Shown here: positions 9,615 to 32,798 of the stretch, piece by piece
How positions within the stretch are numbered: the first letter of the stretch is position 1
How the letters are laid out: each line of letters begins with the position of its first letter
DNA from: an uncultured virus (IMG/VR IMGVR_UViG_3300042864_000556)
Lineage: Duplodnaviria > Heunggongvirae > Uroviricota > Caudoviricetes
Reading direction: 5' to 3' (one strand)
IMG/VR virus record: IMGVR_UViG_3300042864_000556
Length of the DNA: 64,000 bases
Translations under genes and position numbers: made by a program
Notes under the pieces: model-generated
The model's input: the letters and a program-made list of their open reading frames with translations, nothing else
What the model was told of the DNA's origin: nothing
The model's database searches: none

Positions 9615-9679
9615 CGTTTTGCAGCTACACGCTGTGAGCGTTGGAATGAGGGAGGAAAAATAGCGTGTAGGTGATGTTA
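9612..9679 (-). repeat. attC-like site A1
   Basis: TAACGTTTTGCAGCTACACGCT...AGCGTGTAGGTGATGTTA. Confidence 0.75.
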
Positions 9680-9726
9680 TCGGCTGCCCTTCTTTCGGAA
9701 TTATCAAATTAAAAACAATAAACAAA

Positions 9727-9948
9727 ATGAAACAAACCGCAGTAAATTATTTGGTTAATGAGTTAAAAAAATCAAAACATTTTCAAAGATTAATAAATGA
9801 AGTTAGCGAAAACAAAACAATCGTTGAAGACATTATTTTACAAGCAAAAGAATTAGAGCAAGAGCAAATAATGGAGGCACATTATGCACCTAAATACGGG
9901 TGCTTTTCAGAAAAATACTATGATGAAACTTTCGGTGATATTTCTTAG
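9727..9948 (+). CDS. Cassette-borne hypothetical protein (MKQTAV family)
   Basis: Between A1 and A2; similar to 16314..16580. Confidence 0.7.
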   Translation: MKQTAVNYLVNELKKSKHFQRLINEVSENKTIVEDIILQAKELEQEQIMEAHYAPKYGCFSEKYYDETFGDIS

Positions 9949-9957
9949 GGTTGCCGA

Positions 9958-10044
9958 TAACGTTTTGCGGCTTGGCGAAGGCTGCCTAACGGATGCTCAA
10001 TTTTCGAACGAAACTTTATGGCAGCTTTTGCCAAACCGCTGTTA
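9958..10044 (-). repeat. attC-like site A2
   Basis: TAACGTTTTGCGGCTTGGCGAAGGCTGCC...GGCAGCTTTTGCCAAACCGCTGTTA. Confidence 0.85.
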
Positions 10045-10085
10045 CCTGCTGGGCGGTTTATCAGTAGGAACTTAAATAAAAAACG

Positions 10086-10331
10086 ATGATTAAAGTAGCA
10101 AAAAAAGATTTAAAGAACATTGAAGTTGAAGTCAATAAAAACGGTGGCTTTACTGTATGGGTTCTTGAAAAGAAAAAAGTAAATGGCAAGATGATTACTT
10201 TCAAACATTGGATTATTGACGGGAGCTGCATTAAGGATGATGGTGAAATCAAACTGGGTTTACATGATATTTGGAAAATCAATGCAAAGTTTGACGAAGT
10301 AGAAAATGCTCTTTATGTAACGAGGTCGTAG
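10086..10331 (+). CDS. Cassette-borne hypothetical protein
   Basis: Fills the cassette between A2 and A3. Confidence 0.7.
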   Translation: MIKVAKKDLKNIEVEVNKNGGFTVWVLEKKKVNGKMITFKHWIIDGSCIKDDGEIKLGLHDIWKINAKFDEVENALYVTRS

Positions 10332-10340
10332 CCTTGCAGC

Positions 10341-10430
10341 TAACGGTTTTCGTATATACGAGGTACGTCAAACGATAAACTTCAAATTATAAACAAATGC
10401 TTGTATGTGTATCTTGTATATACGCTGTTA
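10341..10430 (-). repeat. attC-like site A3
   Basis: TAACGGTTTTCGTATATACGAGGTAC...GTATCTTGTATATACGCTGTTA. Confidence 0.8.
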
Positions 10431-10449
10431 GCAGATAGTAAAAATTATT

Positions 10450-10611
10450 ATGGAAGATATAAAGTTAAAATACTTAGACCCATTAACTGACAAGCAGAAA
10501 GAAGCAATTTTTGGTGTGAAAATAGAACATTTGACACCAAAGGAAATACTTGAAAAATATGGCGATATATTGACCAAAGAGCAAAAAATTGCGTTAGGCA
10601 TCACGGAATAA
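10450..10611 (+). CDS. Cassette-borne 53-aa hypothetical protein
   Basis: Hand-translated MEDIKLKYLDPLTDKQKE...ALGITE. Confidence 0.6.
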   Translation: MEDIKLKYLDPLTDKQKEAIFGVKIEHLTPKEILEKYGDILTKEQKIALGITE

Positions 10612-10620
10612 TTTTTATTT

Positions 10621-10666
10621 CGGATCGCAGCTATGCGCTCGTTTTAATGGCGCATAGGTGCTGTTA
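10621..10666 (-). repeat. Degenerate attC-like site A4 (TAAC end missing)
   Basis: GCAGCTATGCGC...GCGCATAGGTGCTGTTA retained; left TAAC absent. Confidence 0.65.
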
Positions 10667-10710
10667 GCAGATGGCACGGTTTAATTAGTAAAACTTAATT
10701 AGAAATACAA

Positions 10711-11016
10711 ATGGAAAACTCGAAACAAAGTGAAGCATTCTTTGAAATGTTCACTCAAGTAAGGAAAGAAATTGCAAACGAAAACGGATACCACTTAGCA
10801 ACTGCAATAATGAAAACTTTTGACAGGTGGAATATGTGGCAAACTGGTATGCCTGAATTTGATGGTAAATATCTTGCGTTAATTGAACATGAACAAGAAT
10901 GCAAGAATGTGTGGAAGTATCAAGAAATAGTCGATTGCGTCTTTAATAATTGGGTATTAAAAGACAAACAGAAAGTAGTAGGATGGAAAAAATTGTCAAA
11001 CGAAGACGGTCAGTAG
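10711..11016 (+). CDS. Cassette-borne hypothetical protein
   Basis: WQTGMPEFDGKYL...VVGWK; cassette ends GTTAGCAGATGGCAC / GTGCTTTCTGCTAAC. Confidence 0.7.
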   Translation: MENSKQSEAFFEMFTQVRKEIANENGYHLATAIMKTFDRWNMWQTGMPEFDGKYLALIEHEQECKNVWKYQEIVDCVFNNWVLKDKQKVVGWKKLSNEDGQ

Positions 11017-11026
11017 TGCTTTCTGC

Positions 11027-11097
11027 TAACTGCTACGCTATACGAACCTTGATTTATAATTCATTGAATGACAGTGCAAAAAGTATTGATTATAATT
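11027..11097 (-). other. attI-like terminal site of array A
   Basis: TAAC-TGCTACGCTATACGAAC-N35-GTATTGAT; aligns with 17316-17387 and 19136-19200. Confidence 0.7.
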
Positions 11098-15738: not shown

Positions 15739-15920
15739 TACATAACGAAGACACTCGTAATTTAGACGGGGTAGTAGATTTTAGGGCTGTAATAAGCGCA
15801 AGTGGTTCGGCTGTTGAGATAACACACGAACACGGCACGGTTGAAGTTTTGCAGTACCATAACTCTGACGATTGCTTACAAGGTTTTAGAGTGATTAGCG
15901 ATAGGCTAAAAGGTAAATAA
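15729..15920 (+). CDS. Hypothetical protein; stop codon is the TAA of attC B1
   Basis: ORF ends GGTAAATAA-C. Confidence 0.55.
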   Translation: MQVIHNEDTRNLDGVVDFRAVISASGSAVEITHEHGTVEVLQYHNSDDCLQGFRVISDRLKGK

Positions 15921-15995
15921 CGGTTTCGGGCTTGGCGAAGTGGCTTTTGTGCGTTGGCTTGTGTGTCGGAAAGCCATTTTGCCAAACCCGTGTTA
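15918..15995 (-). repeat. attC-like site B1
   Basis: TAACGGTTTCGGGCTTGGCGAAGTGGCTTT...AAAGCCATTTTGCCAAACCCGTGTTA. Confidence 0.85.
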
Positions 15996-16068
15996 TATGA
16001 AGTGCCGACTTATTTACGATAAAGCTCAATTGAAACAATAAACAGAAAAACAAAAAGAAAAAAAAGCG

Positions 16069-16329
16069 ATGGAAAAAACAGCTATACAAACATTAATTGA
16101 AGACCTTAAAAAAGAAGGTTATCAAATGGACAATTTAGATGCTCATTATTATTTAGAATTAGAAAAAGTACAGAAATGGAATAATTTTTTAGAAAACAAC
16201 TTCCCTTTAAATGATTGGGATATTGTTGTTTTTAGCAACAAAAAAAACAAATATTACATTGAATATACGGATAGTGAATTTTACCAAAGATGTATTAATA
16301 GAAACTATATAAAATGGATGAAATTATGA
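16069..16329 (+). CDS. Cassette-borne hypothetical protein
   Basis: Within cassette B. Confidence 0.6.
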   Translation: MEKTAIQTLIEDLKKEGYQMDNLDAHYYLELEKVQKWNNFLENNFPLNDWDIVVFSNKKNKYYIEYTDSEFYQRCINRNYIKWMKL

Positions 16330-16580
16330 AACAACAAACAGCAGTAGAATGGTTAATTGAGCAACTAACTCCTTCAATATCTTTGCAACAAAAACATATT
16401 GATGAATTAAAAGAGAAAGCTAAAGAAATGGAGAAAGGTCAAATAGTCGATGCAGGCGTTTTTTCATTTCAACTAAATGATAAAACGCCTTACGGAATGG
16501 AATATCTAAGCAAACTTGATAATGCAATTTCAAATGCTGTGTATTATTATAATGAAACTTATAACAAACAAAATAAATAA
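16314..16580 (+). CDS. Cassette-borne hypothetical protein (MKQTAV family)
   Basis: TAVEWL...AKEMEK.QI...YYNETY. Confidence 0.65.
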   Translation: MDEIMKQQTAVEWLIEQLTPSISLQQKHIDELKEKAKEMEKGQIVDAGVFSFQLNDKTPYGMEYLSKLDNAISNAVYYYNETYNKQNK

Positions 16581-16851
16581 CATGGAAACAAGTAAAGAAT
16601 TAAAAACACCAACACAACACATGATGATATGGGTGTTGCAAAACTTTGAAAAAGAGTTAGAAAACGATATTGATAAAGACAAGTCGCTTGATGAAATATT
16701 TGACGAAACACTAACTTTTGAGCAACGAAAAATGAAAGAGTTTTTTATAGCTGGAATTATGCTTGGCTCTGGAGCTTATCAGTTAAAGAAAGAGTTTGAT
16801 ATAGATGTAGAATTTAAAAAGTTTTACTCAAAATTATTCCCCGAAGAATAA
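16516..16851 (+). CDS. Cassette-borne hypothetical protein (true start probably METSK, about 16582)
   Basis: Within cassette B. Confidence 0.55.
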   Translation: MIMQFQMLCIIIMKLITNKINNMETSKELKTPTQHMMIWVLQNFEKELENDIDKDKSLDEIFDETLTFEQRKMKEFFIAGIMLGSGAYQLKKEFDIDVEFKKFYSKLFPEE

Positions 16852-16877
16852 AATTACATAAATAAAAAATATCAAAA

Positions 16878-17240
16878 ATGAAAGCAAGCGAATTAAGAAT
16901 TGGAAATTTGGTTTATGTTAGTGATAATGAAACTAATATAATATTTAAACAAATTACTCCAATAAACATACATAATTTAATGCACTTAACAGGATGGGAT
17001 AAATCTCCTATCGATATTGAATTTGAACCCATACCATTAACAGAAGAATGGTTATTAAAATTGGCATTTAAAAAAGATGGAACAAACGCTATTTTTTGGA
17101 CTTTAAACAATGTTGATGTTTGGCAATTAAATGGGGTATATGCGAATGATTTAGATTTACCTATTCAATACATTCATCAATTACAAAACTTATACTTTGC
17201 ATTAACTGGTAAAGAATTAGACTATGAAGAAGAATTTTAA
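16878..17240 (+). CDS. Cassette-borne phage protein
   Basis: ELRIGNLV...PIPLTEEWL...HQLQNLYFALTGKEL pattern. Confidence 0.7.
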   Translation: MKASELRIGNLVYVSDNETNIIFKQITPINIHNLMHLTGWDKSPIDIEFEPIPLTEEWLLKLAFKKDGTNAIFWTLNNVDVWQLNGVYANDLDLPIQYIHQLQNLYFALTGKELDYEEEF

Positions 17241-17315
17241 AAGTGCGGTGGCTTTTTTCTTTTTGTTTTTCCTTCACGGATTTTCAATTGGAAACGGTCA
17301 GCAAGGCATTTCATA

Positions 17316-17387
17316 TAACTAATCGCTATGCGAACATTGAATCGTAAGTCATTGTAACATAGGCGTAAATGTATTGATGTGTAATTT
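17316..17387 (-). other. attI-like terminal site of array B
   Basis: TAAC-TAATCGCTATGCGAAC-N35-GTATTGAT. Confidence 0.7.
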
Positions 17388-17507: not shown

Positions 17508-18197
17508 GTGAAATCTTCCATTAAAAAGTACAAATGCCTATGCGGATGCGGTGAATCGTTTATCCGCTATTCGCTGTCGCATAAGTGGGTTAACTTAGAC
17601 CACAAAAAGCATTGGCTACTAAACACTATTGAAGGGCAAAAAGAGGTAAACAGAGTAGCTAAAAAGGCTGCAAAGGATAGAGAAAAAGCCGAAAAGAAAA
17701 AGGACAAAGAAGCTAAAGAAAAAACAATAAAATGGGATAAGCTACTACAAAGAAAGGTTCAAGAGATTGCAAGGTTCATAGACCACCTATTGCCATGCAC
17801 CGCTAAAAACGCCCCCGCAAAGCAGTATCACGGTGGGCATATATTCTCAAGGGGTGGCAATTCAAATATAAAATACAACCTACATAACATCCACATACAA
17901 TCAGCCCAATCTAATCACTTTCAAAAAGACGATTACGAACTAAAAATGGGCGTAGTAAGGGTGTACGGAAAAGATTATTTGGAATACATTGAAAGCCTAA
18001 AGAACACACCAACAACCAAGCACTCAAACATGGAGTACAAAGAACTATACAGCAAGGCGTGTAAGATTTCAAATAGGCTAAAAAGCGAAAATAAAAACTT
18101 AGAACAGCCTCGCACAATAGTACAAAGGCTGTCACTAAGAAATCAGATAAATTTAGAATTAGGTATTTATCAAACCGTTGACTATTCCCCAAGCTAA
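17508..18197 (+). CDS. NinG/Rap-like recombination nuclease
   Basis: RFID..LPC, HGGHIFSRG, KYNLHNIHIQ..N, YG.DY. Confidence 0.75.
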   Translation: MKSSIKKYKCLCGCGESFIRYSLSHKWVNLDHKKHWLLNTIEGQKEVNRVAKKAAKDREKAEKKKDKEAKEKTIKWDKLLQRKVQEIARFIDHLLPCTAKNAPAKQYHGGHIFSRGGNSNIKYNLHNIHIQSAQSNHFQKDDYELKMGVVRVYGKDYLEYIESLKNTPTTKHSNMEYKELYSKACKISNRLKSENKNLEQPRTIVQRLSLRNQINLELGIYQTVDYSPS

Positions 18198-19163: not shown

Positions 19164-19200
19164 GTTGTTATTGTTTTGTTGTTCGCATATAAAGAAGTTA
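19136..19200 (+). other. attI-like terminal site of array C
   Basis: ATCAATAC-N36-GTTCGCATATAAAGAA-GTTA. Confidence 0.7.
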
Positions 19201-19455
19201 TAGGAAATTTATGGATTTTAAGTATTTTTCAACACCTTCCTTTATTCCTAAACTTTGGTTATGTATTCCATCACATTCCATTGATTGACAAAAATCCATA
19301 AACATTCCTATAACAGCAGGTTGGGCAAAATTTTTATTTGCTTCCCTCGCCATTATTAAGCAATCTACATAAGCACCTTTCACCCTTCTATTAACATTTG
19401 TGTTAGTTGGGATGCTGTCTGCTTTCAATTTAATTTGTTCAATTAGTTCTTTCAT
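19198..19455 (-). CDS. Cassette C1 hypothetical protein (starts in attC loop)
   Basis: Reads through the hairpin arm (NFAQPAVIG); stop at the GTTA junction. Confidence 0.6.
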   Translation of the reverse strand: MKELIEQIKLKADSIPTNTNVNRRVKGAYVDCLIMAREANKNFAQPAVIGMFMDFCQSMECDGIHNQSLGIKEGVEKYLKSINFL

Positions 19456-19517
19456 TCTATTTATATTTTGTTGTTAATAATCCGCAAATAAAAACTTCGC
19501 CAACCTGCGAAACGTTA
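19311..19517 (+). repeat. attC-like site C1 (long coding loop)
   Basis: TAACAGCAGGTTGGGCAAAATTTTTATTTGC...GCAAATAAAAACTTCGCCAACCTGCGAAACGTTA. Confidence 0.8.
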
Positions 19518-19525
19518 TCGGCAAC

Positions 19526-20260
19526 CTAAAAAGACAGCGTACCTTGTTTGATACTTTCTGAAATTCGTTTGATTGCCTTATCAATATATTCTTTGTCAAT
19601 TTCACACGCTGTTAAGTGTAAATTCATTTTATCTAATCGGTTTGCTTTATCTACTGCTAAAGCTATTGAGCCACTCCCGAAATGGGTGTCTAAAAGTTTT
19701 ATTCCATTAGTTGCAAATCCTTTAATGCAAAAATCATAAACCTCTGTTGGTTTTTGTGTTGGATGAAATCTTATTGTAGGTTTTCCAACGCCTTTTATAT
19801 TTCCTTCATATCCGTATCTATTTCCGTCCCACATATATTTAAAAATTTTAGCATTTTTATCAAATGAAGTCCAAGCCATTTCGCAGTCTGCATAAGTATC
19901 TGAATGGTTCAATTTGTCCCAATTAATAAAACATCTTGTATTATTCAAATGCTCTATAAAATAATTTCCACCCCAAATTATTTGGTTTTTACTTACCCTT
20001 TTTAGTTCTGTAAAATATTCTTTTGAAGGTATTTTTGAATCCCAATCATTTGCCGAATTATTATTAAGCCGTTTGTTTTTAGTTATATTTATTCCATAAG
20101 GCGGGTCGACAATTGCCAAATCGAAATATTTATCAGGGTATTGCTTCATTATTTCCATACAATCAGCGTGGAAAAGAGAAAGGAAAGGCAGCCGATAACA
20201 CGGTATAAAACCAATAGCGGTTTCGGTGGTTTGTGTTGTTTCTGTTGTATCTATATTCAT
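19526..20260 (-). CDS. DNA methyltransferase (N6A/N4C, beta-class), cassette C2
   Basis: DPPY, HPTQKP, FGSGS. Confidence 0.9.
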   Translation of the reverse strand: MNIDTTETTQTTETAIGFIPCYRLPFLSLFHADCMEIMKQYPDKYFDLAIVDPPYGINITKNKRLNNNSANDWDSKIPSKEYFTELKRVSKNQIIWGGNYFIEHLNNTRCFINWDKLNHSDTYADCEMAWTSFDKNAKIFKYMWDGNRYGYEGNIKGVGKPTIRFHPTQKPTEVYDFCIKGFATNGIKLLDTHFGSGSIALAVDKANRLDKMNLHLTACEIDKEYIDKAIKRISESIKQGTLSF

Positions 20261-20319
20261 TCTACTAATTTGATAAGTTATTACTATTTAATCCGCTACT
20301 GGTCTTATACCCAACGTTA
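20196..20319 (+). repeat. attC-like site C2
   Basis: TAACACGGTATAAAACCAATAGCGG...CCGCTACTGGTCTTATACCCAACGTTA. Confidence 0.8.
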
Positions 20320-20322
20320 GCT

Positions 20323-20556
20323 TCAATTGCCTGCCAACGCACAGACAAAATCCCAACGAACATTTGCATCTTCTAATGTTTGGTGATTAGTTGTTTTCTT
20401 GTTTTTTCTTTTAACGGTGTAATAATCATATTTACTTGGTTTAAAATCTTCATTACAAGAACAATCACCAAAACATTGGCATCCTGTAAATCTTGTTATT
20501 CCAGTATGATGATACATCACGTTAAGTTCGTTTTCTTTTATAATCTCTTTTGCCAT
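20323..20556 (-). CDS. Cassette C3 hypothetical protein (CxCxxxCxC)
   Basis: Fills cassette. Confidence 0.65.
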   Translation of the reverse strand: MAKEIIKENELNVMYHHTGITRFTGCQCFGDCSCNEDFKPSKYDYYTVKRKNKKTTNHQTLEDANVRWDFVCALAGN

Positions 20557-20600
20557 ATTTTTGTTTTTAATTCGTTAAGCCCACGCAAGGCAACTAAAGC

Positions 20601-20649
20601 TAACAGCACATTGGCGGCATTAAAACGACCGCCAATCTGCAAAACGTTA
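20601..20649 (+). repeat. attC-like site C3 (shortest intact, 49 bp)
   Basis: TAACAGCACATTGGCGG...CCGCCAATCTGCAAAACGTTA. Confidence 0.8.
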
Positions 20650-20658
20650 TAAGCCATT

Positions 20659-21030
20659 TTAGGACGACACACCGTTGATAGCAAGTAAATTCTCCCAACC
20701 ACACGAAACATCGTAACCTAAATCATCGGCTTGATTAACAGTCAATGCTTTTAATTCAATAGTTTCAGTTGGTTCTTTTGGCATTTCTTTATAATCCCAC
20801 CATTCAGAACCATCATACTCGCCTCTTTCAAGCCACCAATTTTCACCAACCACTAATAAATCTTGTGCAACTTTAGATGAACCATAACCACTATCATAAT
20901 CAACATCAGCGTTTTTCTTGAAATCTTCCCAAGTTGTTTTATGAGTTGAAGTTCCTACCCATTTTACATCTGTTTCTTTTTTGTTATTTCTCTCTAATAA
21001 TTCAAGAGTTTCTTTTAATAAATTGCTCAT
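20659..21030 (-). CDS. Cassette C4 phage protein
   Basis: DYDSGYGS...WWLERGEYDGSEWW motif. Confidence 0.75.
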   Translation of the reverse strand: MSNLLKETLELLERNNKKETDVKWVGTSTHKTTWEDFKKNADVDYDSGYGSSKVAQDLLVVGENWWLERGEYDGSEWWDYKEMPKEPTETIELKALTVNQADDLGYDVSCGWENLLAINGVSS

Positions 21031-21077
21031 TGTTTTTAAATTAAATTGTTAAGCCAAACACGAATAAAAACGGCTTA

Positions 21078-21168
21078 TAACAGTGGTTTGGCAAAATACC
21101 GCCACAAGCCTTTGTTCTATAATTCAACATTTGTGCAAGGCGGTACTTCGCCAAGCCACCAAACGTTA
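21078..21168 (+). repeat. attC-like site C4
   Basis: TAACAGTGGTTTGGCAAAATACCGCC...GGCGGTACTTCGCCAAGCCACCAAACGTTA. Confidence 0.85.
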
Positions 21169-21186
21169 GGTGCAATAGCTACGACA

Positions 21187-21711
21187 CTACTCCGCAATGA
21201 CATTTTCGACATCATTAAGTTTCTGTTGCAAACTATTTACTTGCGATTTTAAGTTTTCAATTTGACGAAGTAAGCCATTATTTACTCTTTCATCATCTTT
21301 GAATTTATGCCAGTTGTTTCCAATTATTTGCACAATAGCATCTTTCCAACGCCATTCAAATTGATAGTTCCTATGGGTGTAGTTTTCAATTACATTTTCC
21401 ACACTTAACATTATTGCTTCATCGGTCAAAGTTTTAGTAAGCTGTTCTTTGTTATCCAAAAACAACTTTTCACGAAGTTTGGCAAATTTATATTGCATCG
21501 GATTTTGGATAAATTCTTCTGTAATATCCTTAATCAATTCACTTTCAATTTTAGATTTTGAATTAAGGTAGTGTTCGTAAATCCAGCTTTCCATTTCATC
21601 ACTAAATTTGCCTTGCAATTCGTCTGTAATTTTAGTAATACTTGCTTTCAATATCTTACTTGAAGCATCGTTTATTTGTTCTTCGGTAAATACTTTGTTT
21701 AAACTTTCCAT
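21187..21711 (-). CDS. Cassette C5 coiled-coil hypothetical protein
   Basis: Fills cassette. Confidence 0.7.
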   Translation of the reverse strand: MESLNKVFTEEQINDASSKILKASITKITDELQGKFSDEMESWIYEHYLNSKSKIESELIKDITEEFIQNPMQYKFAKLREKLFLDNKEQLTKTLTDEAIMLSVENVIENYTHRNYQFEWRWKDAIVQIIGNNWHKFKDDERVNNGLLRQIENLKSQVNSLQQKLNDVENVIAE

Positions 21712-21768
21712 TTGTTTTTTATTTATTTTGTTAAAATTAAAATTCTACTAATCAACCGCTACTGCACC

Positions 21769-21855
21769 TAACACGGGTTTGGCAAAAGTGGGCAGAAACA
21801 TTCTGCTAAATTTGAGCATCCTACAAGCCCACCTTCGCCAAGCCCGAAAACGTTA
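21769..21855 (+). repeat. attC-like site C5
   Basis: TAACACGGGTTTGGCAAAAGTGGGC...GCCCACCTTCGCCAAGCCCGAAAACGTTA. Confidence 0.85.
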
Positions 21856-21864
21856 CCACCAATG

Positions 21865-22272
21865 CTATAAGACACGGTAGTAATTCTTTTCAAATATTCT
21901 GACAACCATATCACGTTCCCATTTTGACAACTTTGACTGCTTGTTTTGAATAAGTCCGTATTCTTTGACAATATCAGTTCCATCAGGCAATTTGCGTTCA
22001 TATCGGCTTTCTCCATACCCATACAAATCATTCATATAAGGCATATAAATCATTGAAGCCATTGCCATAATTCCACCAAGTTTTGATGAAACGTGTTTAT
22101 GTTTTCTTTGCTCTGTTTTTATAGGTGCATATTTTACACCATTCAAATCAAAACTTTCATCAGGTTCGATATTGTCAATTACAACAACATCAATTCCTTT
22201 ATTTTTCAACTCTTGAACAACATCATTTTTTCCGTGTCCAACGTGTCCAATTATTCCTATTTTATTTTCCAT
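21865..22272 (-). CDS. Cassette C6 hypothetical protein
   Basis: N-terminus KIGIIGHVGHGK; fills cassette. Confidence 0.7.
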   Translation of the reverse strand: MENKIGIIGHVGHGKNDVVQELKNKGIDVVVIDNIEPDESFDLNGVKYAPIKTEQRKHKHVSSKLGGIMAMASMIYMPYMNDLYGYGESRYERKLPDGTDIVKEYGLIQNKQSKLSKWERDMVVRIFEKNYYRVL

Positions 22273-22310
22273 TTGTTTGTTAAATTAAAATTCGTTAAAA
22301 GCACTGGTGG

Positions 22311-22388
22311 TAACAGCACATAAGCAAAAGCCCAAATCCCTCGCTAAAGCCAACGCTATTTGTGCCTTCGCTTATCTGCAAAACGTTA
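22311..22388 (+). repeat. attC-like site C6
   Basis: TAACAGCACATAAGCAAAAG...CTTCGCTTATCTGCAAAACGTTA. Confidence 0.8.
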
Positions 22389-22396
22389 TAGGGCAT

Positions 22397-22708
22397 TTAG
22401 CCATCAACACCTTCATAACCGTTTGGAAGTATTACAGAGCCATTTCTTTTGCGAAATGTTTGTTTGCGTTCTCCAGCTTTGTAGGCATTAAATAAATCAG
22501 TTTCATCATACATTTTAGTAATATCAATTAATGATTCAACTTCATTGATTCTAAAATGTTCTTTAACGACCTGTTCGGGTTTTATCAATTCTCTATTAAT
22601 TTTATCAGCTATTGCTTCGTACATTTCAGGTGCTACTGACACTCCACCACGTTTGTAGTCTCTTTGTTCAAACTCTTTTAAAATTGCTATTACTTTCTTT
22701 TTTGACAT
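22397..22708 (-). CDS. Cassette C7 hypothetical protein
   Basis: Fills cassette. Confidence 0.7.
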   Translation of the reverse strand: MSKKKVIAILKEFEQRDYKRGGVSVAPEMYEAIADKINRELIKPEQVVKEHFRINEVESLIDITKMYDETDLFNAYKAGERKQTFRKRNGSVILPNGYEGVDG

Positions 22709-22731
22709 TGTGGGTAAAAATAAACGCCCTA

Positions 22732-22819
22732 TAACATTGCATACACAAAAGCGGGGGCGAAGTGCTAAAATGTATGTTCGGGTTAAAGAAGCCCCGCCTT
22801 CGTGTATGCTTTGCCGTTA
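22732..22819 (+). repeat. attC-like site C7
   Basis: TAACATTGCATACACAAAAGCGGGG...CCCCGCCTTCGTGTATGCTTTGCCGTTA. Confidence 0.8.
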
Positions 22820-22828
22820 GCGGTAATG

Positions 22829-23140
22829 CTAATCCCATCCACGACAACCATCGTAATGAGAATTTACAAGCCACAGTTCATCATTATTGTTTTTAGGGAA
22901 AATAACCCTATCTTTTTGAGTAAAAGCAGTTTCGTTTTTTGAAATTTTTGAGCAATGACAGCAATGATAACCTTCGTTTCGTTTGTCAATTACTTTTCTT
23001 TTTGATAACTCCAAAGTGAAATTTTCCCTATATTTCTCAACTAATACGTCTTTAAAATATAGTTCTTTTGCTAAGACCGACAAAGCACTACCGCTAACAT
23101 CGGTTTGGCAAGATTGGGGGTTCTGTGGTAAATTGTTCAT
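22829..23140 (-). CDS. Cassette C8 hypothetical protein (starts in attC loop)
   Basis: Leader NPQSCQTDVSGSA encoded by hairpin arm. Confidence 0.65.
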   Translation of the reverse strand: MNNLPQNPQSCQTDVSGSALSVLAKELYFKDVLVEKYRENFTLELSKRKVIDKRNEGYHCCHCSKISKNETAFTQKDRVIFPKNNNDELWLVNSHYDGCRGWD

Positions 23141-23221
23141 TTGTGTTTCTATTTAAAATTTTTAGTAAAATTGAGCGATTGTGCTTTTAAGTCCCCAACC
23201 TCGCCAAGCCGAGAACCGTTA
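23095..23221 (+). repeat. attC-like site C8
   Basis: TAACATCGGTTTGGCAAGATTGGGG...CCCCAACCTCGCCAAGCCGAGAACCGTTA. Confidence 0.85.
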
Positions 23222-23242
23222 GGTGCAATGCCAGCAGACGTG

Positions 23243-23962
23243 CTAAAATAAGCTGACCGATACACCATTAAGCAAGTTTTTACCTGTTTTACAATATTCG
23301 GGTTCGACTTCAAAACAAATGAAATCCCGCCCTATTTCTTTACAAGCTCTTGCAGTTGAAAAGCTACCAGCAAAAGTGTCCAAAACTAAATCGCCTTTAT
23401 TGGTGCTTTTTTCTATCAAGTGCCTTAAAAGGTTTGTTGGCTTTTCTGTTGGGTGGTTATCGGTTGTCATCTTTGCACATTTAATAACATTGCTACTTCG
23501 CCCACCATTTAATTTTTTGCTTCCATTGCTACAAAATATTATCAGTTCATATTTCGGGGCGTAATCACCAAGCAAATCACCGCTACCGTGATTATTCTTT
23601 TCCCAAACTAAAATATTTTTCACATTAAAATACGCCCCTAATGTTTGCTTAAAAACATCAATGTTATGCCAGCTACAAAAAATATAAAGGTGTGCATCAT
23701 CTTTACAAACCCTTTTAAGTTCTTTGCACCAATCGTCTAACCAATCTAAATCAGTATCGTTTTGGATGCTTTTATGCTTTTCTTTTCGTCTATTGCTTCT
23801 ATAAGCCATTCCATAGGGCGGGTCAGTCAAAACAAGGTCAATAGTATTGGTAAAAACTTGCTTAATTGCATCTTCCCAATCAACACAAGCAACCTCGTTC
23901 ACGAAAGGCACTGCACCTAACACGGGTTTGGCAAAATTGCCGTTTTGTTCTTCTATCAACAT
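23243..23962 (-). CDS. DNA methyltransferase (N6A/N4C, beta-class), cassette C9
   Basis: TDPPY, HPTEKP, DTFAGS. Confidence 0.9.
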   Translation of the reverse strand: MLIEEQNGNFAKPVLGAVPFVNEVACVDWEDAIKQVFTNTIDLVLTDPPYGMAYRSNRRKEKHKSIQNDTDLDWLDDWCKELKRVCKDDAHLYIFCSWHNIDVFKQTLGAYFNVKNILVWEKNNHGSGDLLGDYAPKYELIIFCSNGSKKLNGGRSSNVIKCAKMTTDNHPTEKPTNLLRHLIEKSTNKGDLVLDTFAGSFSTARACKEIGRDFICFEVEPEYCKTGKNLLNGVSVSLF

Positions 23963-24037
23963 TCGTTCTTAATTTTAAACATTTGTACTTCTATTTAGCT
24001 TTTGTGTTCGGCAACTTCGCCAAGCCCGAAAACGTTA
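23918..24037 (+). repeat. attC-like site C9
   Basis: TAACACGGGTTTGGCAAAATTGCCG...CGGCAACTTCGCCAAGCCCGAAAACGTTA. Confidence 0.85.
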
Positions 24038-24283
24038 CCTGCCATTTCGGACACGGTACTCGACACCATTAAACAACGACTTCATTACTCGCCTTGCAGT
24101 TTCAATATCCTGAATATCTTTATCAGGGTCAATAGTTCCCATACTATCCTGAACGCATTGAAGCATATAATCAATTTCGCTGTTTAATTCCTGCTCTATT
24201 TGCTCCAAAGTAAGAGAAACGGCAGGTAACACACGTTTGGCGTCATTTGGGCTAACGCCTTGCCCTTGAACATTAGTTTCCAT
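24035..24283 (-). CDS. Cassette C10 hypothetical protein (starts in attC loop)
   Basis: Leader NDAKRVLPAV; stop at GTTA junction. Confidence 0.65.
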   Translation of the reverse strand: METNVQGQGVSPNDAKRVLPAVSLTLEQIEQELNSEIDYMLQCVQDSMGTIDPDKDIQDIETARRVMKSLFNGVEYRVRNGR

Positions 24284-24352
24284 ATTTATCTTTTTTTAAG
24301 TTGAACATTAGTTTTCCAAAATCCCAAACGAACGCCAAGCGTGGGAACGTTA
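24227..24352 (+). repeat. attC-like site C10
   Basis: TAACACACGTTTGGCGTCATTTGGG...CCCAAACGAACGCCAAGCGTGGGAACGTTA. Confidence 0.8.
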
Positions 24353-24360
24353 TAGGGCAT

Positions 24361-24633
24361 TTAATCGAACTCCGTAGAAGCGATTATGCAAAAATCATCA
24401 CCCACTGCTAAATCGTAAAGTGGTATAGTTTCAATATCTTCTAGGTCGTTTTCGTCATAGTCAGTATTTTTAACCATGGTTGTCATTGCTAATGCGTCTG
24501 AAATTTCTTCCAAAGTTTCAATTTCCTGCAATGGCAAATCGAAATCAGCATCATACGATTTTAATAGGTGTAATTGATTTTTGGCAGTACACCAGTCAAT
24601 TCTGCCATCTTCAAAAGTTAGTTTAAATATCAT
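24361..24633 (-). CDS. Cassette C11 acidic hypothetical protein
   Basis: Start reassigned to MIFKLTFEDG within the cassette. Confidence 0.65.
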   Translation of the reverse strand: MIFKLTFEDGRIDWCTAKNQLHLLKSYDADFDLPLQEIETLEEISDALAMTTMVKNTDYDENDLEDIETIPLYDLAVGDDFCIIASTEFD

Positions 24634-24655
24634 GATTTTAATTTTAAACGCCCTA

Positions 24656-24742
24656 TAACAACAAACATAAGCAAGTGGGCGGTTAATGCGTATGTTGTGG
24701 GTTTGTCGAGCATTGCCCACCTGCTCATGTTTGCGGTCGTTA
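24656..24742 (+). repeat. attC-like site C11
   Basis: TAACAACAAACATAAGCAAGTGGGC...GCCCACCTGCTCATGTTTGCGGTCGTTA. Confidence 0.8.
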
Positions 24743-24776
24743 TGGAAAATTTTAAAAACCTTTTCCCACCGCACCG

Positions 24777-25193
24777 TTAATCCTCGTCAACAAATCCGTC
24801 AAGAGTTTGTCTAAAGTTTGCGATTTTTCCGTTTTCGTCAATGTCCATAATGATATAATCACCGTAACCACTTTCTTTTGGACACATCATTTTTGGTACA
24901 TAATCCTGTTCAATTGACAAAATGGTATTGCCTTCTGCATCTTGCAAATAATAACTACCTGCATCGCAAACTTTATAATGTACTTCGGCTTTTACACCTT
25001 GTTTCCAATTGGTAATTACACCGCTATCAATATCAATAATTGGACACCACAATTCACCCTGTTTACAAGGTATTAAATCGCCTTCGGTATCTTCAACACC
25101 ATTAACGGTTGCATCTTCGTAATATCGTACACCTGCTTTTACTACTAAAGTTTTCAATTCAACTTTTTTTTCAATTTTTACTGTTGCTTTCAT
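24777..25193 (-). CDS. Cassette C12 phage protein
   Basis: VRYYEDATVNGVED...HYKVCDAG...YGDYIIM; start probably MKATVK. Confidence 0.75.
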   Translation of the reverse strand: MKATVKIEKKVELKTLVVKAGVRYYEDATVNGVEDTEGDLIPCKQGELWCPIIDIDSGVITNWKQGVKAEVHYKVCDAGSYYLQDAEGNTILSIEQDYVPKMMCPKESGYGDYIIMDIDENGKIANFRQTLDGFVDED

Positions 25194-25245
25194 TTTTAAT
25201 TGTTGTTTAAATGCCACCCCCTAAAAGGTTTTTAAAACTATCCCA

Positions 25246-25333
25246 TAACACGGGTTTGGCAAAATGCCGCAGGACAGTTAGTGCTAAAATTTAAGTTTCG
25301 AGTAGCGGCACTTCGCCAAGCCCGATAACGTTA
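25246..25333 (+). repeat. attC-like site C12
   Basis: TAACACGGGTTTGGCAAAATGCCGC...GCGGCACTTCGCCAAGCCCGATAACGTTA. Confidence 0.85.
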
Positions 25334-25564
25334 CCTGCCATTTTCAAGACACCAATACACAAAGATTTCGTCAACTTTTGCGTGTGGGTATTTAGATGGA
25401 TTATAGGATAACATTTTTGGAGAACCTGCTACATAGTAATTATCTCGGATAAAGTTGCCGAACGCAATCATTTCTTCCGAAGAAAAAACGGCAGGTAACA
25501 ATGGTTTTGCGTCAGGCGGGGCATCTTGCTCCGAATAAACATTTGAGGTTAATTTATCTTTCAT
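25331..25564 (-). CDS. Cassette C13 hypothetical protein (starts in attC loop)
   Basis: Leader PPDAKPLLPAV; stop at GTTA junction. Confidence 0.65.
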   Translation of the reverse strand: MKDKLTSNVYSEQDAPPDAKPLLPAVFSSEEMIAFGNFIRDNYYVAGSPKMLSYNPSKYPHAKVDEIFVYWCLENGR

Positions 25565-25619
25565 TTTTCAAATTTACTTTTGTGGTTAATAATCCCGCCC
25601 GAACGCAAAGCCATTGTTA
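25496..25619 (+). repeat. attC-like site C13
   Basis: TAACAATGGTTTTGCGTCAGGCGGG...CCCGCCCGAACGCAAAGCCATTGTTA. Confidence 0.8.
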
Positions 25620-25826
25620 GGCGTAATGCTGAAACATCTTGAGAATATCATCTTCGTGCAATGAATTATCTTCCCACCATTCACCATATCCAAACATTTG
25701 CATTTCATAATCACGTTGTTTGGACTTGGTTAGTTTATTCCACCACAATAAAGCACTACGCCTAACAGCAAGTATATTCAATTGCTGGTTCTGTGGTTTA
25801 TTTGAGTTTTGTGTTTCTATTTTCAT
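25617..25826 (-). CDS. Cassette C14 hypothetical protein (starts in attC loop)
   Basis: Leader QQLNILAVRRSA; stop at GTTA junction. Confidence 0.65.
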   Translation of the reverse strand: MKIETQNSNKPQNQQLNILAVRRSALLWWNKLTKSKQRDYEMQMFGYGEWWEDNSLHEDDILKMFQHYA

Positions 25827-25888
25827 TTGTTCTTAATTTAAAGTGTTGTGATTTTAAATCCGCAACTAAATATACTTGCGAACCGTTA
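25763..25888 (+). repeat. attC-like site C14
   Basis: TAACAGCAAGTATATTCAATTGC...GCAACTAAATATACTTGCGAACCGTTA. Confidence 0.8.
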
Positions 25889-25956
25889 GTGGCAATGCTA
25901 TAATCCGCCAAAACCACAACAAACAGTAAGTTTTGGCGAACTATCAATCACCGCTA

Positions 25957-28552: not shown

Positions 28553-29374
28553 TTAAATAAATACTGCATTTTTAGGGAATTGTGAATAGTATTCATGTAT
28601 GAACGTTTCCATGTCGTCTTCGGTGTCATACTCATTTGAATACATTTCGTGTAACATAAAACTGTTTGGGTGTTTAAACAACTTTGACCGTACTTTTTTG
28701 CGTTCCATTGTTTTTAGCAAACTTGTTATTACATTCATAGGCAAATGGTCTTGTAGTTCCATATTTAGTTTTTTCTTAATACGGTTGTGCAAAGCCTTGT
28801 CAATATCAATTATATTGTCTTTGTGGCTTTTAACATACTCTTTGTACCATTGCAAAGCCTCTTGTTTTGTCAAGTTCCTATATACTTGTATGTTCCTAAA
28901 CAGCCCTTCTGCAAACAGATAGTTTGGCAATATCTTTTTACGGAAATACGTCTCAATATCCAATTCTTGAAATGATTGATTAGAGCGCACATACCAACGA
29001 TTATACCCGCTTATTGGTTTAAATTCAGAGTTGCTTGCACATTCAATGTATATTCCAATAATATCAGCGCACATTCTAAGCCTTATGTTGCGTTCATATC
29101 CGTTCCAATACAAAGTGACTTTTGCGCCCCTATGTGTGCTTTCATAGTTGTATTCGTTTGGCAACTGCATGATTTCATAAAACTTATTCATTGCAGCACC
29201 ATACAACCAATTCCCTATTTGTGAAAGCCTATCAATGCGCCCGCTTCGGTTAAATTCGTAGTACCTATGCCTCCAATGATTTTCATACCTATATTTGTCT
29301 TGACTTAATTCAAGGTACATTTGAATTGTTGGGTCTTGCCCTAACAATTGATTGACTCCGTTAATGCTTCTCAT
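28553..29374 (-). CDS. Hypothetical early protein
   Basis: 273-aa ORF with A-rich start region. Confidence 0.6.
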   Translation of the reverse strand: MRSINGVNQLLGQDPTIQMYLELSQDKYRYENHWRHRYYEFNRSGRIDRLSQIGNWLYGAAMNKFYEIMQLPNEYNYESTHRGAKVTLYWNGYERNIRLRMCADIIGIYIECASNSEFKPISGYNRWYVRSNQSFQELDIETYFRKKILPNYLFAEGLFRNIQVYRNLTKQEALQWYKEYVKSHKDNIIDIDKALHNRIKKKLNMELQDHLPMNVITSLLKTMERKKVRSKLFKHPNSFMLHEMYSNEYDTEDDMETFIHEYYSQFPKNAVFI

Positions 29375-29400
29375 TGTTTTAGTTATTAAGTGTTAAATGT

Positions 29401-29706
29401 TTATTCTTTGCTCATATCCCTATCATGTAACGGTATAGGGTATTGATTTAATTCGTTTACCCTACTATCTGATGAAGTTATAAAAGTCCCTCCAAAAGCA
29501 TAATAGCCTTTTTCAAACGGTTCAGCGTGTATATATTCTTTGCCGTATATTTTACGCCTCACAATTCGCACGGGAGGACTGTCTTCGCTTGCCTCAAATA
29601 TAGGGGCAATTTGTTCGTCTATAATTGTAACGCTGTTTTTGCCGTACATTACATTGATTTTGCTGTCGTATTGACTGCGGTAGATGCTTGCTGTTAATCC
29701 TTTCAT
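29401..29706 (-). CDS. Hypothetical phage protein
   Basis: FGGTFITSSDSR...PIPLHDR motif. Confidence 0.65.
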   Translation of the reverse strand: MKGLTASIYRSQYDSKINVMYGKNSVTIIDEQIAPIFEASEDSPPVRIVRRKIYGKEYIHAEPFEKGYYAFGGTFITSSDSRVNELNQYPIPLHDRDMSKE

Positions 29707-29952
29707 GTTATTAATAATTAAATTCTCTTTTTAATTGACTGCCTTCAAACAATTGGTCAAGTGCTTTTTTACTTAGCTTTTGCGGTTTATTATTCCAGAA
29801 ATGGAATATTTTGAAATATCCTTGATGCGTGTCTAAATATTTAACCACTTCATTGAGTTGCTCAATGTTGCAAAATGCTTGTTTGCCTACGCTTGTGACT
29901 ACATGGTAGACACTTAAATTGTTGTTTATTGTTGTATTCATGTTTTTGTTTA

Positions 29953-30597
29953 TTATGCCCAAAGGCGTTTTGCTAAATTTAAATTTGTTTCTGCGTTTTT
30001 TACTTCTTTGTTAGCATATTGCAGGCTCATTCCGTGCGGTCTTTTGTCTGGGTTGTCCTTCAAATATGCGTGCTTTTCTTTTGCTTCCTCTAGTTTGTAT
30101 TCCCACAACTCTATACTTTCGGGCATTGACAAATTAACTTCTTCCGCCTTTGCCTCCCAATATTCCGCCCGTTCTGCATATTCTGCTACTTTTTTACTTT
30201 CTTCTACACTTTTGCTCATTCTATTCCAATTGCGTTCAATCAATGCCCTGTGTCTTTTTTCGCTGTGATGTCCTATTTTTATAGGTTCGCCCAATGCTAA
30301 AAAGTCTTTGCCCTCGTTGCTTGCATTATAGTATGCATTGCTTCGCCTTTCTGCATTTGCTGCCCATCCTTGTAGCCTTTCCGCTTTTGCTTTTGCACGT
30401 TCTTGACAATTGTAACCATCAGCCCGCACAATGGAATAATAAAAATTTCCTTCCTTGTCTTTGCCTACACAATTAAAAACGGTGCATTCGTGTTCTTTGC
30501 CGTATTTAGTGGTTAATGTGATTGTTTCGCCTTTTTCGTGTTGCTCGGTGCATTTTGCTACAAATACATTTGCAGCGAATTTGTGATATGTGTTCAT
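29953..30597 (-). CDS. DUF3560-like protein
   Basis: LGEPIKIGHHSEKRHRALIER motif. Confidence 0.8.
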   Translation of the reverse strand: MNTYHKFAANVFVAKCTEQHEKGETITLTTKYGKEHECTVFNCVGKDKEGNFYYSIVRADGYNCQERAKAKAERLQGWAANAERRSNAYYNASNEGKDFLALGEPIKIGHHSEKRHRALIERNWNRMSKSVEESKKVAEYAERAEYWEAKAEEVNLSMPESIELWEYKLEEAKEKHAYLKDNPDKRPHGMSLQYANKEVKNAETNLNLAKRLWA

Positions 30598-30621
30598 ATT
30601 AGTATATATTAAGTGGTTATA

Positions 30622-31035
30622 TTAATTTCCTGTTGCTTTGCACCATTTCAAATGCTTTTTGTGTTCTATTCTATACAGTCGCTCTATTGTTGCTCGGTCA
30701 ACTTCTGGGAACATATCAGCAACAACAGACCAATCCCCCGTATAAAAACATTCATGGTTCGCAAATTCATAGGCTATTTGTTTAAGTCTTAAATTATTTG
30801 CTTTTACCGCTTTTTGGTAGGCTTTTCTATTTGCTTCTAATCCGTTTAGTAGTTTATCTAAATTACCCTTTGGAACATATCCACCGCCTAAAATAGATAC
30901 ATACTTTTCACCTTCTTTTAATGGTGTTTTGTTCTCGGCAAATTGCTCGTTTGAGAATGCGAAAAAAAGCCCGCACTCTTCAAATAGAATGCTGTTTGCT
31001 TGCTCTTGTTGTTGTTTTAATTCGTGTAAGTCCAT
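30622..31035 (-). CDS. Hypothetical early protein
   Basis: FFAFSNEQF...YEFANHEC motif. Confidence 0.65.
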   Translation of the reverse strand: MDLHELKQQQEQANSILFEECGLFFAFSNEQFAENKTPLKEGEKYVSILGGGYVPKGNLDKLLNGLEANRKAYQKAVKANNLRLKQIAYEFANHECFYTGDWSVVADMFPEVDRATIERLYRIEHKKHLKWCKATGN

Positions 31036-31447
31036 GATTAAATTAATTAAGGTTATTTGTAATTATTAAATTGGTTATCGTTATACTCGTCTATTGCCTC
31101 AAATAGACTTAAAATTGCTTTGTTCGTGCAGTATATAAATACTGCTGTGAAAATGATTATTGTCATTGCTTTAGTTGTTTAAAATTCGTTTATTAAATAC
31201 CTTTCCGCATCCACTAAGTCCATGTAGTGTTGACCTTTAGCATCCTCTTGTAACATTCTACAATATTGCAAAGGACTTGACATTGTGCTTTTATGGCACT
31301 TTTCAACTATCTTTTGAACGCTAGGCGACAACTCGTTAAAATCGTCAAAAATAAAGCCGTGTGGCGTTCCGTCTTGTGTGAATCCGCATTTTTCATACGT
31401 TTCAGTAAATTCATCATTTGTGTACATTGTTTTGTTTATTTAGTGGT

Positions 31448-32092
31448 TTAAAATCTGTTTCCTTCTGCTGTAAACTCGTATTCGTTGGCTTCGATAGTTT
31501 CGCTTATATATTCGTCACTGTTTACCCAATCTTCATTACTGTTAAATACTTTTGTAATAGCGTATTCAATTTCACTTATTAAGTCTGCAAAGGTTGTTGA
31601 CTTGTTAGGATGTTTTAAAAAGTCGTAAACTGGTTGTAAAATGTCATTGTCAAAACAAACTCCCGTTAACGGACAACTGTTGTCAAATTGAATATTTGAG
31701 TAAATAAAATTGCTACTGTTTACTCTTGCCCCTTTGCTCATATCAAAAAAGTGAGTTTTGCTCATTGGGTGTTTTATTACTTTGTTGTCGCCTATTGCTT
31801 TCAAGTATTTGCGTTTATATAAACCGCTCCAGTAATTGTTTATAATATACTTATATAGCCTTATCCCTCTCAATTCAAGTATATTATCATCAATGTGTGA
31901 TGTTCTTATGTCATCCCATTGTTTGCCCGTTTTAAAATTAAATAATTCGCACATTTTTTCTACTGAAGCAATTATTTCATGTGCCCAAATGTGTGCATCA
32001 TCGCTCCCGTTTCTGTACCAATTAATTGCTTTTTGTTTTGCGTCTTCGTTTAATTCGTTGAATTTGTAGACTTTTGTTCTTACTGTTCTCAT
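31448..32092 (-). CDS. Hypothetical early protein
   Basis: VYKFNELNEDAKQKAI...CPLTGVC...EANEYEFTAEG. Confidence 0.7.
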   Translation of the reverse strand: MRTVRTKVYKFNELNEDAKQKAINWYRNGSDDAHIWAHEIIASVEKMCELFNFKTGKQWDDIRTSHIDDNILELRGIRLYKYIINNYWSGLYKRKYLKAIGDNKVIKHPMSKTHFFDMSKGARVNSSNFIYSNIQFDNSCPLTGVCFDNDILQPVYDFLKHPNKSTTFADLISEIEYAITKVFNSNEDWVNSDEYISETIEANEYEFTAEGNRF

Positions 32093-32798
32093 TTTTTTTA
32101 CGTCTTGTTTCGGTAGCGTCTAACCGTTGTTAATTGTTAAAGTTTATTTAGTTGTTATTAGATAAAAATATCTTAGCGGGCAAAGTTAGTCATGAACTTG
32201 TTTTGCACGTTTCTAAAAACGCTCTTTGCCCTTTTTAGCTTGTTTTATAGTTGCTCAGCTATTAATCAGGTACTTTATACAGTGCAGCCAATTTAATCGG
32301 CACATACTGAACTATAAATAAATAGTATTTCATTTTGTACATTTTTTACCTTATTCAGACTAAAGCATATTTAAAGCCTGTATAAATTTAGTTTCGTGTA
32401 AAATTGTTTGATTGTTGCATACCCGTTAATGCTTATTTGCGCAGAATCTCGGCACATTAACCCCCTTTTATGCAATATTGACAAAACCTTATTAAAGTCA
32501 ATAGATTAATGTATGAGTATAACATTGCTAATGTATTTCATACATATTTTTTAAAGGTATAGTAAAAATATATTTTACCTTTCAAAGAACTAACAAACTA
32601 CACACAAAACAAACCAATTAACTAGAAAAAATACAAAAAACTTGATGATAGTATTTTTATTTGTTAACCTGTAATTAAATACAGATTTGCGTAAAATGTA
32701 ATAAGTCAAAAAACAATTGTCCAGCTCATCAGTGTACATTTAAGGACTATGTACAGACAGGAATATATATAATATCCCCCGTTTCGAAAGGTTTGTAA

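Follow-up and report, generated by a model that had tools for sequence, protein, structure and literature searches.

Probable mobile gene cassettes in an apparently integron-like array of a crAss-like lake phage

Filamentous vibriophages, the DNA of which integrates at dif, are a known case in which Xer recombination uses folded single strands. The attC sites of integrons are described, in the accessible text of Nivina et al., as having a 7-bp R box (RYYYAAC/GTTRRRY), strand exchange between the bases A and C of the bottom strand, spacers of 5-6 nt in each arm, extrahelical bases and a length of 57-141 bp (Nivina et al. 2016, PMC5027507). The accessible part of the IntegronFinder 2.0 description gives one complete integron in Bacteroidetes, and that of Smyshlyaev et al. 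(2021) reports incomplete conservation of the IntI insertion within an integron-like subgroup. Clusters of at least two attC sites from which the integrase is absent are defined as CALINs (clusters of attC sites lacking an integrase). CALINs have been reported in virulent phages, among them two predicted sites in Polaribacter phage P12002L that are treated as classical attC sites in the available text (Front Microbiol 2023, PMC9892861). The present report concerns a stretch of 64,000 nt from an uncultured virus (IMG/VR record IMGVR_UViG_3300042864_000556), referred to as a whole as the window, and in particular an array of genes and hairpins at 19197-25888. The layout, with 14 sites and 64 kb without a recombinase, resembles that of a CALIN. 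We consider it likely, with a probability of about 0.8, that mobile gene cassettes form an integron-like array here in the genome of a crAss-like lake phage, the window itself containing no recombinase.

All open reading frames (ORFs) in the main array are on the minus strand, with hairpins between them. The array consists of 14 cassettes (C1-C14, 118-704 bp) and 14 hairpins (H1-H14, 41-199 nt, falling into two size groups around 80 and 117). On the plus strand every hairpin has TAAC to its left and GTTA to its right (14/14), and all 14 cassettes start with GTTA-N and end with N'-TAAC. Classical integrons likewise form one-directional arrays in which imperfect hairpins lie between single-gene units, and they share the conserved AAC/GTT at the hairpin base and the better folding of one strand.

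A preliminary description of this DNA had proposed that the start of each cassette is the near reverse complement of its own end, while the flanks of one hairpin do not pair with each other. In all 14 cassettes the first 16 bases agreed at 12-15 positions with the reverse complement of the last 16 bases of the same cassette. At positions 5-16 the own ends matched in 135 of 168 cases (mean 9.6/12), whereas 100,000 permuted pairings gave a mean of 66.5 (standard deviation 8.5, maximum 105) and none of them reached 135. Neighbouring ends across one hairpin matched at a mean of only 3.9/12 (n = 13) and all non-self pairs at 4.4/12. Both proposals were thereby upheld in the permutation comparison of self and neighbour ends that the same description had suggested. 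The A/C mismatch that it had noted at position 11 is recurrent indeed: an A is present in 14/14 starts and a G in the reverse-complemented end of 12/14, C1 and C12 having an indel instead. This pair is an A.C mismatch on the plus strand and a G.T wobble on the gene strand. The pairing spans positions 1-15 and is lost at position 16, where 2/14 match. The length given earlier, 12-25 nt or more, was right in exceeding the 7-bp core of integrons, but the usual length is 15 nt and longer pairing is found only in C12 (~26 nt) and C1 (18 nt), in each case with an indel. The ends are not unique to each cassette, since end families are common to C5/C9, C7/C11 and C10/C13. The end pairing is a statistically overwhelming footprint of unit-precise capture.

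When the cassette junctions were circularised in silico, the minus strand folded with a mean of -28.6 kcal/mol compared to -18.7 kcal/mol in the array context. The minus strand of these junctions was more stable than the plus strand in 14/14 cases (mean -28.6 versus -23.3 kcal/mol). In 13/14 cassettes the own start folded better than any of the 14 other starts; the exception, C7, ties with C11, a cassette of the same end family. The circularise-and-fold check thus agreed with the earlier proposal that the full stem forms only in a circular cassette with the crossover in GTTA, a proposal that is further supported by TAAC borders of units, by the array ends and by a recombinase adjoining the arrays of relatives. 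Classical integrons show the same principle: through crossover in the triplet, a cassette begins with bases that are complementary to its own site. The paired length differs, being 15 bp here and 7 bp in the R box. With respect to the array ends, no hairpin is present left of 19197, where, in gene sense, C1 gives way to ordinary sequence with a 93-aa ORF, and this end is therefore the insertion-site (attI-like) end of the main array. At the other end the first hairpin, H14, is preceded by an orphan flank resembling a cassette end, for which no partner was found; the best candidate within 3 kb matches at 11/15 positions. The lack of a hairpin after C1 together with the orphan flank at H14 is the pattern expected from serial insertion at one site.

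Three units of the main array recur in IMG/VR contigs amid unrelated surroundings, with both flanks unrelated. Unit 12 (25333 to 24739) shares 97.3 % identity over 596 nt, from TAAC to TAAC, with contigs L019/L065. Unit 9 (24037 to 23218) is common to L050 and L044 at 76-77 % identity with borders at TAAC, and unit 4 (~21168 to 20646) is 95 % identical to its counterpart in L039. In the shared units similarity begins at the TAAC 5' of the hairpin (in gene sense) and ends at the TAAC that terminates the cassette, and unusual spacers (GTTATCG, GTTTGGT) move along with the hairpin. Nothing hairpin-like follows the shared unit in L019 and L050. A unit at a further site of the window (~15917 to 17319) was compared with L060/L036/L059/L140: its two ends are shared, and 4/5 alignments stop exactly at 17319. 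These borders argue that the mobile unit is composed of spacer, hairpin and cassette, and that the exchange point lies within the shared TAAC (GTTA on the plus strand); judged from the sequences compared, a crossover within GTTA/TAAC is the supported reading.

The hairpins are not confined to the window. A 14-mer of the hairpin arm was found at 124 IMG/VR loci, about 60 of which have both arms correctly spaced, and an 18-mer was found in more than 126 contigs of Bacteroidota genomes, a few of these being metagenome-assembled genomes (MAGs) labelled as other phyla. A downstream partner sequence matching at 9/11 positions or more accompanies 31/51 other viral hairpins (upstream control 0/47) and 31/80 bacterial hairpins (upstream control 1/67). 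Position 11 is G.T in 55/62 of the viral and bacterial pairs. The ORFs run in the sense of the more stable strand in 14/14 cassettes of the window and in 29/31 other viral cassettes, whereas in 23/31 bacterial cassettes they are antisense to it. The bacterial cassettes therefore match integrons in orientation, while the phage genes, lying on the folding strand, are their mirror image. The array in the window is an orphan array with this mirror-image orientation.

Several features were seen in the bacterial loci besides. The commonest bacterial hairpin (L125-L250, e.g. L148, L168 and L181) has 97 nt between its arms, is conserved nearly base for base across several Bacteroidota orders and contains an internal direct repeat of ~25 nt in its loop. 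In the array of a Fluviicola MAG (L181) two tRNA genes (2529-2678) stand just before one hairpin.

Three genomes with clustered hairpins (G001-G003) have their copies in one array that adjoins a PF00589 protein (tyrosine recombinase) of 359-377 amino acids (aa); in G001 five hairpin copies are located on one strand at 116-126 kb of one contig. A homologue of this recombinase is present in the flanks of 12 distinct hairpin loci and is found on the terminal-TAAC, hairpin-less side in 12/12. Four of these loci, on viral-type contigs, have a short recombinase of 266-294 aa that starts 41-52 nt after the last TAAC (4/4). A tyrosine recombinase at the hairpin-less end of the array, here observed in relatives, is also the arrangement of classical integrons. 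The catalytic R, K, HxxR, H and Y residues are aligned and conserved among the recombinases beside hairpins. These proteins match TIGR02249 in two stretches with the middle missing, scoring 179-194 bits against a cut-off of 265, and likewise match IntI4 (2a3v) in two stretches, XerA being the better match. Their best relatives of solved structure are archaeal XerA (4a8e, E 4.8e-39) and XerD, and the source annotation is XerD. By these alignments, the recombinase beside the arrays of relatives is Xer-like and lacks the IntI-specific insertion, in which it differs from the enzyme of classical integrons. What the system has in common with Xer and dif is that the enzyme, of Xer type and lacking the IntI insertion, would act on a site that arises by folding of one strand and has a short centre flanked by paired arms. 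Xer/dif systems, by contrast, integrate whole replicons at chromosomal dif, while here many small units are stacked in arrays.

The hairpins share one architecture, known from predicted folds. On the gene strand five bases after TAAC stay unpaired, and next are a stem of 4 bp, a C.A mismatch (1x1) and ~15 bp including G.T pairs; then come a variable loop, the returning arm, one unpaired base and GTTA. The base of the hairpin thus has 5 nt unpaired on one side but 1 nt on the opposite side, unlike the 5-6 nt per arm of integron sites, and the predicted folds contain no bulged (extrahelical) bases, which in classical sites are present and which are replaced here by the 1x1 C.A mismatch and the fixed G.T wobble. 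The folds have z values of -2.8 to -4.4. No Rfam family accounts for them: the only match of the window hairpins in Rfam 15 was a microRNA at E 0.66, which is chance level, and hairpins of five other loci had no match. Genome-wide repeats of the REP (repetitive extragenic palindromic) type were considered and rejected, as the copies in G001-G003 are confined, or nearly so, to one array.

Long hairpins carry a start codon, another difference from classical integrons. The six long hairpins of the window (H2, H8, H9, H10, H13 and H14) all hold an ATG in frame with the downstream ORF. At other viral loci the ATG in the loop of long hairpins opens an ORF of at least 60 codons in 33 cases and of 5-49 codons in 11, and short hairpins gave 0; the counts of 33 and 11 include wrong-strand readings of the palindromic arms and are not clean proportions. 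In the six long hairpins, as at the IMG/VR loci, the ATG and ~14-28 leader codons run through the junction into unrelated genes. By eye, the ATG moves by one base between hairpin variants matching the frame of the cassette, so that two frames through GTTA are served.

Among the closest described systems is the CALIN of P12002L. Both have attC-like sites without a recombinase around DNA methyltransferase genes, P12002L being a flavobacterial phage; the main array described here differs in having 14 units, with two further sites in the same genome. The P12002L_attC1 oligonucleotide is a hairpin of the present family with a loop identical to that of H3, as confirmed on the P12002L record, and the ends of the P12002L methyltransferase cassette self-pair at 13/15 positions (by eye). 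Extended end pairing, a Xer-like recombinase or reversed gene orientation is not described in the available text of PMC9892861. At 29150-32300 of P12002L (L261) the three methyltransferase genes and one small ORF all have hairpins of the present family between them, including variants in which CAAC or GTTG replaces TAAC or GTTA, so that more sites are present than the two of that study.

A mechanism can be proposed in which the mobile unit, on the gene strand, would open with an unpaired spacer of 5 nt and the conserved imperfect hairpin, continue with GTTA-N11 and the gene, and close with N11'-TAAC. Excision as a circle would join N11'-TAAC to the spacer and hairpin, giving a long folded site on one strand. 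The outer arm of this site would comprise 15 bp (TAAC/GTTA plus 11 bp, with the fixed G.T at position 11); further in would lie a bulge (5 nt/1 nt) and then the inner arm, made up of 4 bp, a C.A mismatch and ~15 bp. One strand would then be exchanged by a tyrosine recombinase at TAA|C (G|TTA on the plus strand), next to the bulge, the partner being either a plain target ending in TAAC or the TAAC of another unit. Insertion would split the outer arm across the cassette, and from such a split it follows that the ends of a cassette pair with each other and not with those of a neighbour. The split outer arm might also favour insertion over excision. Both the circular intermediate and the single-strand exchange are elements that we infer from the pairing. 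The enzyme serving the phage of the window might be provided in trans by the host or by a co-infecting phage, or be encoded by a gene outside the window.

Several observations weigh against reading the region as an integron-like array. No tyrosine recombinase was detected in the 64-kb window by tblastn with two family members (E of at most 1e-10), and none of the 85 ORFs scanned, out of 108, matched PF00589. Of five further genomes, each with 1-3 hairpins, four have their nearest homologous recombinase at a non-adjacent position. Contigs from 4 lake runs that contain part of the stretch, compared with the array, revealed no circles or excision products and gave only short-sided joints, with sides of 19-30 nt and one of 90-91, located in repeated hairpins and possibly derived from other cassettes. 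The one published assay on such a hairpin gave a negative result: of 6 phage sites, P12002L_attC1 was the only one without verified IntI1 recombinants (PMC9892861); that assay used IntI1, an enzyme different from the Xer-like recombinase. Finally, one and the same cassette start is preceded by four hairpin types, depending on the contig, which a single crossover point does not account for; exchange inside the conserved arms must therefore also happen.

This last observation, together with arms conserved over 13-19 nt across phages and the presence of genes for an ERF-family annealing protein and NinG in the window, could be explained by homologous recombination between hairpin arms through the phage Erf and NinG, without any dedicated site-specific enzyme. 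Promoter-stem-loop modules of T4-type phages offer a comparison for such shuffling. However, the shared units in L019 and L050 end at TAAC with no hairpin behind them, where only 4 nt are in common, and homologous exchange makes no complementary cassette ends, so that this explanation is considered very unlikely. A role in RNA is unlikely as well, although it has somewhat more in its favour: the hairpins might be regulatory modules (promoter, leader, terminator) whose end pairing acts in the mRNA, in 5'-3' stability or processing, with shuffling as a by-product. The phage structures are all on the transcribed strand, where the mismatches become G.U, and the in-frame start codons of the long hairpins (6/6 in the window, and the 33 viral ORFs running through the junction against none for short hairpins) fit such a function, as does the strong structure of the C9 interior (z -5.0). 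The opposite strand preference of the bacterial ORFs makes a purely mRNA-level role hard to reconcile with the data; furthermore, unit borders are exact at TAAC with unrelated flanks, the arrays of relatives adjoin a tyrosine recombinase, and the hairpins belong to no Rfam family. Regulation may coexist with recombination, but alone it does not yield self-pairing ends. Movement of the units as single strands by a HUH transposase of the IS200/IS605 type, which cuts 3' of a tetranucleotide beside a subterminal hairpin, would fit the geometry (insertion 3' of TAAC, a TAAC end, one subterminal hairpin and strand specificity). Since no HUH or Y1 transposase family was found by Pfam among the 85 window ORFs scanned, and it is a tyrosine recombinase that recurs next to the arrays, this possibility is regarded as highly improbable.

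The integron-like reading can be extended further, to a second lineage of gene capture, parallel or ancestral to integrons, across Bacteroidota chromosomes and virulent phages. This extension is tentative, and we rate it at slightly less than even odds as a whole. It would involve Xer-like recombinases that never gained the IntI insertion, a strand choice set by the G.T/A.C asymmetry and not by extrahelical bases, and an outer 15-bp arm that exists only in the free circle and would bias the reaction towards capture. In phages the unit would have been reversed and the hairpin would double as promoter, start codon and leader, giving self-expressing banks of methyltransferases and probable anti-defence genes. 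The system is integron-like in its working, yet it fails the defining features of IntI insertion, extrahelical bases and, in phages, gene orientation. In the literature, with most subscription journals outside the coverage, no description of the hairpin family, of its arm 12-mers or of a Xer-like platform in Bacteroidota was found.

Integrons are held to depend on IntI with its special insertion and to be rare in Bacteroidota, whereas the present family of hairpin sites is widespread in phages and chromosomes of this phylum and travels with a Xer-like enzyme instead of IntI. If the enzyme were shown to act on these sites, the known mechanisms of modular gene exchange in phages would be widened, and the stockpiling and swapping of methyltransferases and small accessory genes by lytic phages would be explained. 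The evolution of integron integrases from Xer would then become testable as well, since these sites use wobble pairs and paired arms instead of extrahelical bases.

The window has a G+C content of 36 % and 108 non-overlapping ORFs. Pfam domains of the crAss-virus muzzle protein, a BT4734-type primase, ERF, NinG and an amidase, together with one ORF of 2970 aa, identify the phage as crAss-like, and it is a lake phage: the stretch was found in 24 metagenome runs, from lake or freshwater. Its host is probably a member of the Bacteroidota. The methyltransferase bodies of the main array are similar to those in Flavobacterium and Tenacibaculum phages. No GenBank phage record is close to the region of the 2970-aa ORF, and in searches of GenBank phages with the main array or a hairpin the matches were limited to methyltransferase bodies and a single huge uncultured phage. 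Close relatives of the window with the gene next to the array were also sought, but no distinct locus emerged. ARAGORN detected no tRNA genes in the window. The general recombination functions encoded by the phage, an ERF-family annealing protein and a NinG/Rap-type junction endonuclease, are located at 7881-8504 and 17508-18197, one of the two genes being ~1 kb from the main array. Table 1 lists the features of the main array and of two further sites.

Table 1 Hairpins and cassettes of the window (plus-strand positions; each unit of the main array is a cassette with the hairpin to its right, which is 5' in gene sense)
Feature	Position	Strand	Description
Main array	19197-25888	-	14 units
Unit 1	19197-19513	-	C1 19197-19314 (118 bp); H1 19315-19513 (199 nt); ORF 19198-19455 begins in H1 loop
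Unit 2	19514-20315	-	C2 19514-20199, N6/N4 DNA methyltransferase; H2 20200-20315 (116 nt), in-frame ATG at 20260
Unit 3	20316-20645	-	C3 20316-20604, 77-aa ORF; H3 20605-20645, short hairpin (41 nt)
Unit 4	20646-21164	-	C4 20646-21081, 123-aa ORF, phrog_3972; H4 21082-21164
Unit 5	21165-21851	-	C5 21165-21772, 174-aa ORF; H5 21773-21851
Unit 6	21852-22384	-	C6 21852-22314, 135-aa ORF; H6 22315-22384
Unit 7	22385-22815	-	C7 22385-22735, 103-aa ORF; H7 22736-22815
Unit 8	22816-23217	-	C8 22816-23098; H8 23099-23217 (119 nt); ORF 22829-23140 begins in H8 loop
Unit 9	23218-24033	-	C9 23218-23921, N6/N4 DNA methyltransferase; H9 23922-24033 (112 nt); ORF start 23962 in loop
Unit 10	24034-24348	-	C10 24034-24230; H10 24231-24348 (118 nt); ORF 24035-24283 begins in loop
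Unit 11	24349-24738	-	C11 24349-24659; H11 24660-24738
Unit 12	24739-25329	-	C12 24739-25249; H12 25250-25329
Unit 13	25330-25615	-	C13 25330-25499; H13 25500-25615 (116 nt); ORF 25331-25564 begins in loop
Unit 14	25616-25884	-	C14 25616-25766; H14 25767-25884 (118 nt); ORF 25617-25826 begins in loop
Orphan cassette-end-like flank	25885-25899	-	GTTA + 11 nt on plus strand; precedes first hairpin H14
Second, small array	9612-11030	+	Hairpins 9612-9679, 9958-10044, 10341-10430, and a degenerate one at ~10620-10667
Second array cassettes	9676-9961, 10041-10344, 10427-11030	+	Ends self-pairing
Third site	15918-17319	+	One hairpin 15918-15995 and a 1328-bp multi-gene cassette 15992-17319

The two further sites have the same unit type in plus-oriented gene blocks, their hairpins again being in gene sense. 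At the third site the cassette ends match at 14/15 positions with G/A at position 11, and no hairpin follows the cassette. The first hairpin of the second array, at 9612, stands directly after the stop codon of a gene for a HU-like DNA-binding protein (9327-9614, PF00216). Its last cassette has the start, GTTA plus 6 nt, twice (at 10427 and ~10664) and the matching end once (at 11030), with a short hairpin lacking the 5' TAAC between the two starts; this has the appearance of a decayed junction or of two cassettes fused together.

By eye, a recurrent motif at the 3' end of cassettes holds the stop codon, which is the TAA of TAAC or else a TAG located 14-16 positions from the end. Pairing in the interior was rejected as a general property of cassettes, as only C9, C12 and C6 stand out from triplet shuffles. 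The interior of C9 (23218-23921) folds far better than its triplet shuffles (-85.1 versus -62.1 kcal/mol). This fold is due to inverted repeats that are nested and arranged symmetrically around the gene, one of them a perfect pair of 18 nt (arms 23267-23284 and 23849-23866), and the two halves of the coding sequence therefore pair together. The repeats are retained at corresponding places in the C9 homologues of L050 and L044.

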